A stretch of 64,000 bases of DNA from Acidimicrobiaceae bacterium. GTDB lineage: Bacteria; Actinomycetota; Acidimicrobiia; Acidimicrobiales; RAAP-2. This document shows, in pieces, positions 2,504 to 29,812 of this stretch; position 1 is the stretch's first letter, and every line of letters starts with the position of its first letter. Under the pieces are notes generated by a model. The model did no database searches and had not been told where the DNA came from. It was given only the letters and a program-made list of their open reading frames with translations. Made by a program: the position numbers and the translations under genes. The stretch covers positions 12,462 to 76,461 of the forward strand of contig CANGPS010000007.1 in assembly GCA_947456245.1 (NCBI GenBank). The letters are read 5' to 3'.

Positions 2504-3019
2504 ATGACCGCACCACCGGAGTCGTGCGACCGCTGTGGCTTCACCTACGCCGACGTCGGGATCCTCGAGGCCGCCGAGCGGACCGTGGCCGCCGCCGAGG
2601 TGCTCGGCCAGGAGCTTGTCGCGGCAGGTCCGGCCGGCGCCGAGCGACCCGGCCCTGCGTCGTGGTCGGCGGTCGAGTACGCAGGTCACGTCCGCGACGT
2701 CCTGCTGAGCATCCGGGAGCGCACGGTGCTGGCCACGATCCTCGACGAGCCCGTGGGCACCCCGATCTACCGAGAGGAGCGGATCGCCCTCGGCCTCAGC
2801 CGGCTCGACAGCCCGGAGACGCTCGCCGTGGAGCTGAAGGTGGCCTCCGACCTGCTCCGCCGGACCCTCCTCGCACTGCCCGACGGGGCAGGGGCGCGCA
2901 CCATGACGTACTCGGCGCAGACGCCGATCATCGCCTCGGTGGCGTGGATGGCCGCCCAGGCCGCCCACGAGGCGGAGCACCACCTCGCCGACGTCCGGGC
3001 GGCGGTGGGTCGGCGCTGA
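2504..3019 (+). CDS. DinB / mycothiol-dependent maleylpyruvate isomerase-like family protein
   Basis: 171 aa. Conserved His positions (YAGHVRD ... AHEAEHHLADV) are typical of the DinB four-helix metal site. N-terminal CxxC (CDRCG). Confidence 0.55.
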   Translation: MTAPPESCDRCGFTYADVGILEAAERTVAAAEVLGQELVAAGPAGAERPGPASWSAVEYAGHVRDVLLSIRERTVLATILDEPVGTPIYREERIALGLSRLDSPETLAVELKVASDLLRRTLLALPDGAGARTMTYSAQTPIIASVAWMAAQAAHEAEHHLADVRAAVGRR

Positions 3020-23010: not shown

Positions 23011-23259
23011 TCAGCTCTCGAGCACGTCACCGAGGAGGTCGACGCCGATCCCCTCGCTGCGCAACCAGGCCACGGCAGCGTCGATGCGATCGGCGTGGCC
23101 GTCGAGCTCACACACGATCCAGCCGACCGAGTCGGTAATGTCCGCCCTGCGGATGTCCGGGTCGATGTCGAACTCGCGGACGAGGTGCGCCAAGACCGGA
23201 CGGCGCACCAGTGCCTCGGGGAACGTCAGCTTGACTCGGACTCGGACCTCGGCGCTCAC
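23011..23259 (-). CDS. NIL (ferredoxin-like) domain protein
   Basis: GTG start at 23259. VSAEVRVRVKLTFPEALVRRPVLAHLVREFDIDPDIRRADI...GWIVCELDG, the NIL-domain pattern. 82 aa. Confidence 0.6.
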   Translation of the reverse strand: MSAEVRVRVKLTFPEALVRRPVLAHLVREFDIDPDIRRADITDSVGWIVCELDGHADRIDAAVAWLRSEGIGVDLLGDVLES

Positions 23260-23269
23260 GACGACGACG

Positions 23270-24061
23270 CTAGCCCAGGACCCGGTTGAGGCGCCCGGAG
23301 GCCAGGCCCTCGAGGTCCAGCGCGCAGAACGCGAACCCGGCCGACCGACAGGCGGACACGATCTCGGCGCGTCGGGCAACCGCCATCTCCAGCTCGTCCT
23401 CTGGCACCTCCACCAGGGCGACCTCGCCGTGGTGTCGGACCCGCAGATCGGTGAACCCGATCGCCCGGAGGGCCGCCTCGGCACGCTCGACGGACCGGAG
23501 CCGGGTCATCGTGACCGGCGTGCCGTAGGGAAGGCGCGAGGCCAGACAGGGCGATGACGGCTTGTCGGCGGTGGGGAGCTCGAGCAGGGCGGACTCTGAC
23601 CGGATGGTCGCCTTGTCCATGGCCAGATCGACCAGCGGGAACCTCGCGCCGCGCTCGGCCGCCGCCTCCTGGCCGGGACGATGGTCGCCGAGGTCGTCCA
23701 CGTTGACCCCGAGGACCACGGTCGCTCCGCGCTCGAGGGCGAGGGGGCCGAGCGCGTCCATCAGGTGGGTCTTGCACCAGGCGCAACGGTCAGGACCGTT
23801 CGCCACGTAGCGCGGATCCGCCAGCTCGTCGGTGGACACGACCAGGTGGTTCAGCCCATGTCGCACGGCGAGCTCCCGGGCCGCTGCCTCCTCTGTGTCG
23901 GCCAGCGAGGCCGAGCTCGCAGTGACGCACAGCGCGTCGTCGCCGAGCGCCTCGGTGGCGGCGACGGCAAGGTAGGTCGAGTCCACCCCGCCGGAGAAGG
24001 CGACCACCACCGGGCCGATCTGGCGGAGGTGCTCGACGAGCCGCTCCGTGGTCGGCGTCAC
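23270..24061 (-). CDS. PP-loop ATP-utilising enzyme, LarE-like (TIGR00268-type) sulfur transferase family
   Basis: 263 aa. PP-loop VAFSGGVDSTYL; conserved ...KPSSPCLASRLPYG Cys region as in LarE. Confidence 0.65.
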   Translation of the reverse strand: MTPTTERLVEHLRQIGPVVVAFSGGVDSTYLAVAATEALGDDALCVTASSASLADTEEAAARELAVRHGLNHLVVSTDELADPRYVANGPDRCAWCKTHLMDALGPLALERGATVVLGVNVDDLGDHRPGQEAAAERGARFPLVDLAMDKATIRSESALLELPTADKPSSPCLASRLPYGTPVTMTRLRSVERAEAALRAIGFTDLRVRHHGEVALVEVPEDELEMAVARRAEIVSACRSAGFAFCALDLEGLASGRLNRVLG

Positions 24062-28048: not shown

Positions 28049-28075
28049 TTAGCACTCTGGACGAGGGAGTGCTAG
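28049..28075 (-). promoter_or_regulatory. CIRCE element (HrcA operator)
   Basis: TTAGCACTC-tggacgagg-GAGTGCTAG, i.e. 9-N9-9 with one mismatch to the TTAGCACTC-N9-GAGTGCTAA consensus, 49 nt upstream of the groEL start. Confidence 0.85.
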
Positions 28076-28119: not shown

Positions 28120-28395
28120 TCAGCCGCCGGCGACCGCCGGGACGATCGAGAGGACCTGACCCTCGGTCACCGGAGTCTCGAGGCCGTCGAGGAAGCGGAC
28201 ATCCTCATCAGCGAGGAAGACGTTGACGAAGCGGCGCAGGGCGCCTCCCTCGTCGAAGATCCGCTCGCCGAAGCCGGGGTTGGTGGCGTCGAGCGCACGC
28301 AGGGCGTCACCGACGGTGGCGGCCTCGACGGAGATCTCTCCGACGCCGCCGGTGAGCTGGCGGAGCTGGGTGGGGATGCGGACGGTGATGGCCAT
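28120..28395 (-). CDS. MoaD/ThiS-family sulfur-carrier protein ending in Gly-Gly
   Basis: Trimmed to MAITVRIPTQLRQLTGG...VLSIVPAVAGG-stop (91 aa). Beta-grasp carrier pattern and diglycine C-terminus. Confidence 0.8.
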   Translation of the reverse strand: MAITVRIPTQLRQLTGGVGEISVEAATVGDALRALDATNPGFGERIFDEGGALRRFVNVFLADEDVRFLDGLETPVTEGQVLSIVPAVAGG

Positions 28396-28459
28396 GGTGG
28401 TTCTCCTTGGGTTCGAAGCGGGTTCTGGGGTGGCAGGCGGGGCTGGCGGTCTGGCGCGA

Positions 28460-29707
28460 TCAGGCGCGCACGGGGTCGTCGAGGCCCAGGGCGAGATCGA
28501 AGGCGTCGAGGGTGGGGGCGATCGTGTGGCTCGGGCCGACGTGGCCGGTGAGGGCCTCGACCGTCTTGAGCCCATGGCCGGAGACGATGGCGACGGTCCG
28601 CTCGTCAGGCCGGATGACCCCCTCGGCAGCGAGCTTGGCCAGGGTGGCGATCGTCACCCCACCTGCGGTCTCCGCGAAGATCCCCTCGGTGCGGGCCAGC
28701 AGCTTGATGCCCTCGATGATCTCGGCATCGGTGACCGACCCGCAGGCACCGCCGGTCCGGCGGATCACGTCGAGCGCGTACCAGCCGTCGGCCGGGTTCC
28801 CGATGGCCAGGGACTTGGCGATGGTGTCAGGGCGGACCGGGGCGATGGCGTCGACCTTGTTGGCGAAGGCGGTGGCCACCGGAGAGCAGCCCGACGCCTG
28901 CGCCCCGGAGACCCGCACCGCGGGGATCTCGTCGAGGATGCCCACCTTGCCGAGCTCGGCGAAGCCCTTGTCGACCTTGGTCAGCTGTGAGCCCGACGCG
29001 ATCGGGACCACGACGTGATCGGGTGCCTGCCACCCGAGCTGCTCGGCGATCTCGAAGGCGAGGGTCTTGGACCCCTCGGCGTAGTACGACCGGACGTTCA
29101 CGTTCACGAAGGCCCAGGACGGTCGCTCGCTCGTGAGCTCGGCGCACAGGCGGTTCACGTCGTCGTAGGTCCCCTCGACGGCGATCACCTCGCCGCCGTA
29201 GACCGAGGTCATCATGATCTTCGCCGCCTCGAGGTTCGAGGGGATCAGCACGACCGAGGCCATGCCGGCACGAGCCGCGTGAGCGGCCACCGAGTTGGCC
29301 AGGTTGCCCGTCGAGGCGCAGGCGGCCACCTTGAACCCGAGCTGGCGGGCCTTGGTCAGCGCCACCGACACCACGCGGTCCTTGAAGGACCCCGTGGGGT
29401 TGGCCGTGTCGTCCTTGATCCAGAGCTCCTTGAGGCCGAGCTCGGCACCGAGGCGCTCGGCCCGCACCAGCGGGGTGTAGCCGGCACCGAGGTCGACCGG
29501 CGACGACTCCGAGATCGGGAGGAGGTCGTGGTAGCGCCACATCGAGCGAGGGCCCGCCTCGATGGACGCTCGGGAGATCACCTTGGCGATCTCGTCGTAG
29601 TCGTAGGCGACCTCGAGGGGCCCGAAGCAGAAGTCGCACACGTGGAGCGCCTCGGCAGGGAAGTCCCGGCCACACTCACGACACCGCAGGCCAAGAACTG
29701 TCGACAT
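28460..29707 (-). CDS. threonine synthase family PLP enzyme (ThrC-like; candidate MetM-type homocysteine synthase)
   Basis: 415 aa. N-terminal Cys4 ribbon CRECG...CDFCFG; PLP lysine motif NPTGSFKDR. Sits behind a SAM-I riboswitch and in front of a MoaD-like carrier gene. Confidence 0.8.
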   Translation of the reverse strand: MSTVLGLRCRECGRDFPAEALHVCDFCFGPLEVAYDYDEIAKVISRASIEAGPRSMWRYHDLLPISESSPVDLGAGYTPLVRAERLGAELGLKELWIKDDTANPTGSFKDRVVSVALTKARQLGFKVAACASTGNLANSVAAHAARAGMASVVLIPSNLEAAKIMMTSVYGGEVIAVEGTYDDVNRLCAELTSERPSWAFVNVNVRSYYAEGSKTLAFEIAEQLGWQAPDHVVVPIASGSQLTKVDKGFAELGKVGILDEIPAVRVSGAQASGCSPVATAFANKVDAIAPVRPDTIAKSLAIGNPADGWYALDVIRRTGGACGSVTDAEIIEGIKLLARTEGIFAETAGGVTIATLAKLAAEGVIRPDERTVAIVSGHGLKTVEALTGHVGPSHTIAPTLDAFDLALGLDDPVRA

Positions 29708-29718
29708 TGCAACTCCTT

Positions 29719-29812
29719 CTCATCGATCGGGCGTTGGCACCCAACTCGGCGATCGCTCACCGGTCTGGTTGCCGCAGCGTCAAAGGGCCCGTCCCTCAGC
29801 TGCTCTGGATGA
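29719..29812 (-). promoter_or_regulatory. SAM-I (S-box) riboswitch
   Basis: Minus strand: UCAUCCAGAGCAGCUGAGGGACGGGCCCUUUGACGCUGCGGCAACCAGACCGGUGAGCGAUCGCCGAGUUGGGUGCCAACGCCCGAUCGAUGAG. It contains the conserved AGAG, GAGGGA, GGCCC, UGA, GCAACC and GGUGCCAA blocks and P1 pairing UCAUC/GAUGA. The SD GAAGGAG follows immediately, then the ATG at 29707. Confidence 0.85.

Follow-up and report, generated by a model that had tools for sequence, protein, structure and literature searches.

A SAM-I-type leader, a threonine synthase-like gene and a Gly-Gly sulfur carrier point to MetM/MetO-type homocysteine synthesis in an Acidimicrobiaceae bacterium

A gene resembling threonine synthase that follows an S-box leader and precedes a small sulfur-carrier gene raises the question of which amino acid it helps to make. 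We addressed this question in a window of 64 kb, i.e., the whole stretch of 64,000 nucleotides that was analysed, and in the 2.34-Mb genome to which it belongs. A route from O-phosphohomoserine to homocysteine through MetM and MetO was reportedly described in Streptomyces albulus by Hasebe et al. in 2024 (Appl Environ Microbiol 90:e0124724). A sequence-only reading of the window had taken the gene pair for such a system, and this assignment is supported by a second thrC in the genome, by the phylogenetic tree, by the conservation of the carrier gene, and by the presence of accessory genes. We consider it very likely, from the sequence evidence given below, that the two genes form a metM-metO operon that produces homocysteine from O-phosphohomoserine and is switched off by SAM. 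The features of the locus are as follows.

29849-29820, minus strand: promoter-like site (TTGACG, 18-nt spacer, GAGAAT), consensus match only
29815-29717, minus strand: SAM-I-type (S-box) aptamer without P4, Rfam RF00162 covariance model
29719-29713, minus strand: Shine-Dalgarno (SD) sequence GAAGGAG, part of the putative expression platform, read from the sequence
29707-28460, minus strand: metM-like gene, 415 aa, ThrC-fold PLP enzyme with an N-terminal Cys4 ribbon, assigned from profile matches and the tree
28395-28120, minus strand: metO-like gene, 91 aa, CysO/MoaD-type beta-grasp sulfur carrier of the ThiS/MoaD family
28049-28075, no strand: CIRCE operator TTAGCACTC-N9-GAGTGCTAG ahead of groEL, read from the sequence
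28000-26381, minus strand: groEL, Pfam Cpn60

The gene behind the S-box had been placed in the threonine-synthase family, and it is indeed a PALP/ThrC-family open reading frame: its product matches PF00291 (PALP, 250.9 bits) and keeps the PLP-binding lysine within the SFKDR motif (K109, invariant in both the MetM-like and the ThrC clades). It also reaches 299 bits with TIGR00260 'thrC', whose cut-off is 167 bits, and its relatives carry the name 'threonine synthase' in public sources, which bears out the earlier expectation that it would be misannotated as thrC. These matches, the public annotation, and the many retained ThrC core residues would also suit a second, genuine threonine synthase, an isozyme tuned by SAM whose neighboring carrier gene is unrelated to it. 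However, a much closer ortholog of the solved threonine synthases lies directly downstream of hom on G000:C3 of the same genome (E 4e-142 to 1e-130), whereas the metM-like protein matches these structures with E 5.5e-60 to 8.6e-53 and is 35-40% identical to ThrCs such as 2ZSJ, 1UIM, 6CGQ, and 2D1F. The metM-like gene is thus not the sole thrC homolog of the genome. Five other genomes, two of them from Streptomyces, each contain exactly one MetM-type and one ThrC-type copy.

The phylogenetic tree separates the two paralogs, the metM-like gene falling into a MetM-like clade (n=57 rows, SH-aLRT 100) together with the Streptomyces genes, and the true thrC into a ThrC clade (n=10 rows, support 99). 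The metM-like protein is 54-56% identical to Streptomyces members of its clade that are associated with a carrier gene as well as with a SAM riboswitch, in agreement with the assignment made in the sequence-only reading. The Streptomyces reference comprises S. achromogenes, S. ipomoeae, and others and does not include the characterised S. albulus MetM (UniProt A0A059WBP2), so that the tree is anchored by genus-level orthology; a search for related loci from a Streptomyces query gave 80 other Streptomyces species, and S. albulus had no entry among the 15 listed members of the 90% clusters, each with >1200 members. Around 26 clade-specific substitutions distinguish MetM-like proteins from ThrCs, including SFKDR-VV vs. 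-GM, TGN-LA vs. -TS, and NVNVRSYYAEGS vs. the ThrC loop NS.NP.R.EGQ. In addition, the Cys4 ribbon is invariant in the MetM-like clade. ThrC activity was rejected as the function of this gene on two grounds, namely the replaced loop and the paralog beside hom, which is closer to the solved ThrCs. We predict that the metM-like gene encodes a homocysteine synthase dependent on MetO thiocarboxylate.

The second gene starts 64 nt downstream of the first, behind its own SD (AAGGAG), and encodes a member of the ThiS/MoaD family that ends in AVAGG, as had been described from its 91-aa translation. Its best solved match is M. tuberculosis CysO (chain 3dwg_C, E 2e-19), and it is 53% identical to a Streptomyces MetO-like protein. 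A role as the MoaD of molybdopterin synthase was also considered and rejected, the gene being flanked by metM and groEL and a separate MoaD being encoded elsewhere, between moeA and moaE in moaA-moeA-moaD-moaE (G000:C8). The carrier is thus not part of a molybdopterin operon, and the MoaD, ThiS, and CysO of this genome are each found in their own operon. On its downstream side, the two-gene operon is bounded by the CIRCE operator ahead of groEL.

The association of the two genes is conserved: the carrier gene lies directly downstream of the metM-like gene in all 80 close loci, in 43 of the 49 loci across Actinomycetota, and in 66/80 loci from other phyla. The MetM-MetO pair occurs in about 136-140 of the 301 sampled Actinomycetota genomes, and many phyla besides Actinomycetota have it with 56-66% identity. 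SAM-I elements precede the metM-like orthologs in 28 of the 40 Actinomycetota loci scanned, and in two ortholog loci the SAM-I element is replaced by a T-box with an AUG (methionine) specifier and a UGGU bulge. Control by SAM riboswitches or methionine T-boxes independently supports the published function of MetM and MetO. The same observations weigh against the SAM-tuned threonine synthase isozyme, since its carrier neighbor is kept next to it across many phyla, and the orthologs are found under SAM riboswitches or Met T-boxes and never under a threonine signal. Moreover, an OFF switch responding to SAM would make little metabolic sense for threonine synthesis. This isozyme is disfavoured, and we regard it as very improbable.

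A scan with the Rfam model placed an RF00162 match at the leader with 56.7 bits (E 1.9e-10 in the 64-kb window), about 12 bits over the gathering score of 44.4, confirming the riboswitch family. Only two RF00162 matches occur in the genome, and the second, located elsewhere, has the same P1-SD design. P1 consists of 5 bp (UCAUC, 29812-29808, with GAUGA, 29724-29720), and P2 with its K-turn and P3 are also present. The earlier description of a well-formed S-box with all conserved blocks and P1 therefore holds for the family match and for P1, but not for P4: the P4 hairpin is absent, with 17 RF00162 model positions deleted, for which reason we name the element a P4-less SAM-I-type aptamer. The four-way junction with P4 that is a trait of RF00162 is likewise absent, and P3 is separated from the 3' strand of P1 by about 10 nt in 30/30 aligned relatives. 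The P4-less form is also found in other Actinomycetota.

The score is modest because P4 is missing, and the minimum-free-energy fold of the single leader sequence is no better than that of shuffled sequences (z -0.16). Together with the missing P4, these values could be read as those of a relic or a chance match, with an operon expressed constitutively. Since the single-sequence fold was uninformative, the structure was called from the covariance model together with the alignment. When 30 related leaders were aligned, neither P1 nor the core varied, and P2 showed compensatory changes, with 13 double changes at one pair and 10 at another. A SAM-I element occupies the same place in each of the 8 close Acidimicrobiales loci that were scanned, as it does in many distant ones. 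These features, the E-value in the window, and the second copy with its identical P1-SD arrangement argue against a relic, to which we assign a very low probability, and we assume that the aptamer binds SAM.

The promoter-like site ends 5 nt upstream of the aptamer, where one such site was found vs. 0.0 expected in shuffled sequences, and a -10-like box recurs 7-9 nt ahead of P1 among 67 related leaders. Transcription therefore probably begins with the 5' strand of P1 or immediately upstream of it. The SD starts one base past the 3' strand of P1, which ends at 29720, in agreement with the abutment noted in the sequence-only reading, and the ATG (29707) follows 5 nt after the SD. The SD and P1 overlap in most relatives, with the sequence GAUGAGGAGG. 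No terminator-like hairpin was found in the leader region, nor was an anti-SD found upstream of P1, where the promoter-like site leaves no RNA. From the position of the SD at P1 we infer a translational OFF switch. In the survey of Barrick and Breaker (2007, PMC2258182), SAM-I riboswitches with the ribosome-binding site inside the 3' side of P1 occur most often in Actinobacteria, and translational control by the leader fits both this survey and the anatomy seen here.

The remaining genes that a MetM/MetO pathway would require are candidates by gene content. They comprise thrB, for the supply of O-phosphohomoserine (G000:C4:22555-23376), a single ThiF-family E1 gene of the MoeB/MoeZ type with a rhodanese domain (G000:C2:94528-95685), and a gene for a JAMM (Mec-like) protease (G000:C1:79014-79355), unlinked to metM-metO. 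The rhodanese domain of the E1 is N-terminal, and the PRK08762 MoeB model fits this protein better than the MoeZ model. A metH gene was also found in the genome. Drawing on this gene content and on the Streptomyces work, we propose that ThrB would produce O-phosphohomoserine, and that the E1 would adenylate the Gly-Gly end of MetO and turn it into the thiocarboxylate. MetM, a PLP enzyme of threonine-synthase descent, would remove the phosphate from O-phosphohomoserine, and the sulfur of MetO would be added at the gamma carbon. Homocysteine would then be released, possibly with the aid of the JAMM hydrolase, and methylated to methionine by MetH. The anatomy of the leader suggests how this would be regulated. 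The mRNA would begin with the aptamer; with SAM bound, P1 would be closed and the compact aptamer would lie one base from the SD, so that the 30S subunit could not load, and without SAM, P1 would open and translation would proceed.

Both metX and metY are present in the genome, and the MetM/MetO route would therefore be redundant and not needed by the organism. The assignment of the gene pair stands, but the pair is not the sole route to homocysteine, a point that the sequence-only reading had left to a search for these genes. MetX would supply O-acetylhomoserine, the best solved relative of MetO is CysO, and the choice of substrate is not readable from sequence, all of which leaves room for a thiocarboxylate-dependent PLP pair with another substrate or product, for instance with O-acetylhomoserine as substrate or with a thio-amino acid such as cysteine as product, comparable to CysM/CysO. 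Nevertheless, a dedicated CysO-CysM pair is encoded elsewhere (G000:C1:86430-87674), control by SAM and Met T-boxes points to methionine, and the enzyme is of ThrC descent, the ThrC substrate being O-phosphohomoserine. The same substrate is reported for the Streptomyces ortholog group in the account given in 10.1101/2024.10.14.618325. We thus regard a different substrate or product as improbable, and O-phosphohomoserine and homocysteine as the expected pair.

The closest known system is that of Streptomyces. The pathway is set out in 10.1101/2024.10.14.618325 as MetO, Mec, MoeZ, and MetM, the last described as 'often misannotated' as threonine synthase, and the S. albulus metM is described in PMC12172450 with a SAM riboswitch upstream and metO adjoining. 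Both loci combine a ThrC-derived enzyme with a following CysO-like GG carrier and a SAM-I element upstream, both genomes have a separate true thrC, thrB, a rhodanese E1, and a JAMM protease, and the enzymes share one fully supported clade. Unlike in Streptomyces, where the leader retains P4, the aptamer here lacks it, the SD lies directly at P1, the rhodanese domain is N-terminal, the gene for the JAMM protease is unlinked, the pair exists alongside metX and metY, and the pathway is predicted from gene content; the enzymes are also only 54-56% identical. Cysteine synthesis by CysM/CysO/MoeZ/Mec of M. tuberculosis (3DWG) similarly uses a fold-type-II PLP enzyme, an O-phospho-amino acid, and sulfur from a protein thiocarboxylate, whereas the enzyme here is of the ThrC and not the CysK/CysM type, its expected product is homocysteine, and the genome has its own CysO-CysM pair besides. 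With ThrC (2ZSJ, 1UIM, 6CGQ, 2D1F) the metM-like protein shares the fold, the PLP motif, and presumably the substrate O-phosphohomoserine, and it differs by its extra N-terminal ribbon and the clade-specific substitutions. As for the leader, the SAM-I elements of PMC2258182 with the ribosome-binding site in P1 share the P1-P2-P3 core, the K-turn, a ribosome-binding site that lies within or at the 3' strand of P1, the actinobacterial host, and the OFF logic on a methionine gene, and differ from the aptamer here in the P4 helix. SAM-IV differs by a downstream element that replaces P4, for which there is no room here because the start codon follows 12 nt on.

One further gene may bear on the pathway in this lineage.

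23259-23011, minus strand: free-standing NIL-domain gene, 82 aa, PF09383, 61.7 bits

This gene, which shares the strand of metM-metO, lies 4.9 kb downstream of the pair and immediately follows a gene for a LarE-like PP-loop protein. NIL homologs adjoin metM/metO in 34 of the 80 loci from other phyla, two further genomes of Acidimicrobiia have a NIL gene 5-9 kb downstream of metM, and none was found within the 2.5-kb flanks of 80 close relatives. We put forward tentatively, and as rather unlikely, that the NIL protein functions as a third part of the MetM/MetO system (e.g., a methionine/homocysteine sensor or a sulfur relay), and that this lineage runs a pared-down, rewired pathway with its P4-less, SD-abutting aptamer. 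In that case, the NIL gene of Acidimicrobiia may have moved out of the riboswitch operon, and the LarE-like PP-loop sulfurtransferase may feed or gate the sulfur of MetO.

The locus most likely represents a known pathway that was called correctly, and not a new one, given that this pathway was published for Streptomyces in 2024. Both the pathway and the misannotation have already been covered by the literature and by GapMind, whose 2026 version is described as including the MetM/MetO route, and the finding is otherwise confirmatory. The MetM-MetO pair is very widespread, and the genome studied here is that of a freshwater member of the Acidimicrobiales. Since the family is publicly named 'threonine synthase', pathway reconstructions of the abundant Acidimicrobiales of freshwater and soil miss a homocysteine route and over-count threonine synthases.

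The probable metM-metO operon lies with all its parts on the minus strand of the window, has a divergent glycosyltransferase gene upstream and is followed by groEL:

29849-29820, minus: sigma-70-like site (TTGACG, 18 nt, GAGAAT), a consensus match, 5 nt upstream of the aptamer
29815-29717, minus: SAM-I aptamer, Rfam RF00162, 56.7 bits
29812-29808 (UCAUC) with 29724-29720 (GAUGA), minus: P1 stem, 5 bp
29719-29713, minus: Shine-Dalgarno sequence (SD) GAAGGAG, with the metM ATG at 29707
29707-28460, minus: metM-like gene, 415-aa protein P0001, PALP/ThrC family
28395-28120, minus: metO-like gene, 91-aa protein P0002 ending in AVAGG, ThiS/MoaD family
28049-28075: near-perfect CIRCE operator, TTAGCACTC-N9-GAGTGCTAG, between metO and groEL
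28000-26381: groEL, 3' of the CIRCE operator

The two genes are separated by 64 nt, metO having its own SD (AAGGAG), and since the CIRCE operator and groEL come right after metO, the transcription unit comprises two genes. Judging from the sequence, its transcript would probably start at P1. The sequence-only reading had described an S-box in front of a ThrC-family gene followed by a MoaD/ThiS-like protein ending in GG; this observation and its interpretation as a MetM/MetO pair both hold.

The aptamer exceeds the RF00162 gathering score of 44.4 (E 1.9e-10) and is one of two SAM-I matches in the whole source assembly (2.34 Mb, 105 contigs, 92% complete). Of the conserved blocks and P1 that had been read as complete, the 5-bp P1 is present and invariant and P4 is missing, with 17 consensus positions deleted in the RF00162 alignment. 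A single layout is found in 67 distinct related Acidimicrobiales leaders, namely a -10-like box, CAUCAUCCAGAGC and a 3'-terminal GAUGAGGAG, with the start codon 7-12 nt past GAUGAGGAG. In a 30-leader alignment P1 is identical throughout, P3 varies in length, two P2 pairs show double changes between G-C and A-U (13 and 10 times), and P3 is always followed after about 10 nt by the 3' strand of P1, with no P4. Because the aptamer is conserved and covarying, a dead riboswitch is highly unlikely. P4-less SAM-I aptamers also precede orthologs in other Actinomycetota families (70-79 bits), those of several families passing the Rfam threshold nonetheless, whereas the Streptomyces metM leader keeps P4. 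Aptamers of P1-P2-P3 form, with no replacement helix downstream, were also seen at metM loci L105, L122, L143 and L152. No terminator-like hairpin was found in the metM leader region, where space is insufficient, and the leader matches the arrangement with the ribosome-binding site at the 3' side of P1 described in a SAM-I survey (PMC2258182). We infer that the leader binds SAM and acts as an OFF switch.

A search of the source genome with P0001 gave three PALP matches: P0001 itself, a CysM-like gene and a separate thrC:

Contig C3, 33055-34092: ThrC-type gene, 345 aa, directly 3' of the homoserine dehydrogenase gene (hom)

This second, bona fide thrC is far closer to the solved threonine synthases 2ZSJ, 6CGQ, 2D1F and 1UIM (E 4e-142 to 1e-130) than P0001, which reaches only 5.5e-60 to 8.6e-53 against the same chains. 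In each of five further genomes, of which two are Streptomyces, there is exactly one ThrC-type gene (61-72% identity to the contig C3 gene) and exactly one long-type, MetM-like gene (35-40%). In a 72-row tree (IQ-TREE quick search, LG+C20; over-extended N-termini trimmed, unpublished G226 locus L132 left out), P0001 and the Streptomyces genes fall in a long-type clade of 57 rows (SH-aLRT 100), the true ThrC sequences group apart in a clade of 10 rows (support 99), and five further long ThrC-like sequences are placed between them. All long-clade members share an N-terminal Cys4 ribbon (C9, C12, C24, C27) without variation, and about 26 fixed positions differ from ThrC, including the two residues right behind the PLP motif SFKDR and the TGN-LA motif. 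The ThrC loop NS.NP.R.EGQ, which we take to be the substrate-phosphate binding site, is replaced by NVNVRSYYAEGS. With a true thrC in the genome and P0001 in the other clade, it is very unlikely that P0001 is a SAM-tuned threonine synthase isozyme.

The metM-metO pair belongs to a known, recently published system. The route of Hasebe et al. 2024 in Streptomyces albulus is described in papers that cite it (10.1101/2024.10.14.618325) as composed of the MetO carrier, the MoeZ sulfur ligase, the Mec hydrolase and MetM, a homocysteine synthase dependent on MetO thiocarboxylate and frequently mis-annotated as threonine synthase; in S. albulus, metM has a SAM riboswitch 5' and metO adjoining (PMC12172450). 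Our anchor for this pathway is the Streptomyces ortholog group, at genus level, rather than the S. albulus proteins themselves. The group, at least 90% conserved over 80 named species, is preceded by a SAM-I aptamer and accompanied by a carrier of 91 aa; the pair is publicly labelled "threonine synthase" and "MoaD/ThiS family protein", the mis-annotation as thrC that had been anticipated. Identity to the S. achromogenes proteins is 54% for P0001 (with the ortholog) and 53% for P0002 (with the carrier), and P0002 reaches only 45% against the CysO-like protein of its own genome. It is unlikely that the pair, as a thiocarboxylate system, uses a different substrate or makes a different product.

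In the 80 closest loci, which come from Acidimicrobiales MAGs and show 80-97% identity, metM is without exception followed directly by the carrier gene. Matches among 301 sampled Actinomycetota genomes are bimodal, about 136-140 having an ortholog at 52-72% identity and the rest ThrC-like matches alone at 35-44%, counts that include the unpublished G226, G148, G018, G120, G268, G239, G048, G001, G174, G082 and G088, used for these counts alone, with no other claim depending on them. The carrier is present at 43 of 49 loci taken from this sample, and SAM-I precedes metM in 28 of 40 Actinomycetota loci (Rfam scan). Beyond this phylum the family occurs in Chloroflexota, Nitrospirota, Aquificaceae, Thermodesulfobacteriota, Poribacteria, Armatimonadota and others (56-66% identity), with the carrier adjoining metM in 66/80 loci and SAM-I in 5 of the 20 scanned.

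At two loci of low-GC Actinomycetota MAGs a T-box leader replaces SAM-I:

L140 (genome G093), 1004-1327: T-box-controlled metM-metO pair
L135 (genome G292), 2765-3019: T-box-controlled metM-metO pair

In both, GAA-C-AUG-A/C forms the 3' side of the specifier loop and abuts the closing helix, so that AUG (Met) occupies the specifier position. The bulge is UGGU, which pairs with A as the discriminator base, and residue 73 of bacterial elongator tRNA-Met is an A. To our knowledge, T-boxes on methionine biosynthesis genes seem uncommon in Actinomycetota.

Within the assembled 92% of the source genome, one other operon has a SAM riboswitch, outside the window:

Contig C13, 10024-11817 (L011:525-2318): second SAM-I operon, aptamer 48.2 bits
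L011:3517-4416, same contig: heliorhodopsin gene (NF038020, 316 bits), 3 kb from this riboswitch

It shares the metM leader design, the P1 3' strand GCGAUGG running into the SD GGAGGAG and then ATG. Behind it lie genes for a 126-aa protein that matches no family and for an MBL-fold protein of 431 aa carrying the alkyl-sulfatase dimerisation domain PF14863, gene content that may point to SAM-repressed sulfur scavenging.

Closer to the pair, the window contains a candidate accessory gene:

23011-24061, minus: LarE-like PP-loop gene with the NIL gene directly 3'
23011-23259, minus: free-standing NIL-domain protein, 82 aa, PF09383

Of 80 loci outside Actinomycetota, 34 have a NIL homolog (31-43% identity) immediately next to metM or metO. 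Two other Acidimicrobiia genomes have a NIL gene 9 kb 3' of metM on the same strand; its neighbour is a LarE-like gene in the first genome and chdC in the second. The NIL protein may be an unlinked accessory of the MetM/MetO pathway.

The source genome also has thrB, metH, a JAMM/desampylase-like gene and a single ThiF-family E1, with a rhodanese domain and best matching the MoeB model PRK08762; metE was not found in the 92% complete assembly. Its four ThiS-family carriers each have their own setting:

beside thiO: ThiS
between moeA and moaE: MoaD
contig C1, 86415-86696 (L253:8916-9197): CysO-like, ending GG-AG, adjoining CysM
28395-28120 of the window, minus: MetO (P0002), ending exactly in GG

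With MoaD encoded in a setting of its own, MetO is not a carrier taken over from molybdopterin synthesis, an origin that the sequence-only reading had weighed against its own proposal. The CysO-like protein runs two residues past Gly-Gly, and its C terminus may have to be trimmed, a step for which the JAMM protease encoded 7 kb upstream is a candidate.

A metX homolog lies 3' of metY:

Contig C2, 73112-74320 (L012:3113-4321), minus: metX homolog, 403 open codons

It aligns over its full length to the MetX model, and its first 166 codons contain no ATG, GTG or TTG; it may start at a rare codon, with ATC or CTG as candidates behind GAGGAGG. As to metX, metY and metB, also raised at the outset, metX and metY (O-acetylhomoserine sulfhydrylase) are present and adjoin each other, and homocysteine can thus be made by two routes in this organism.
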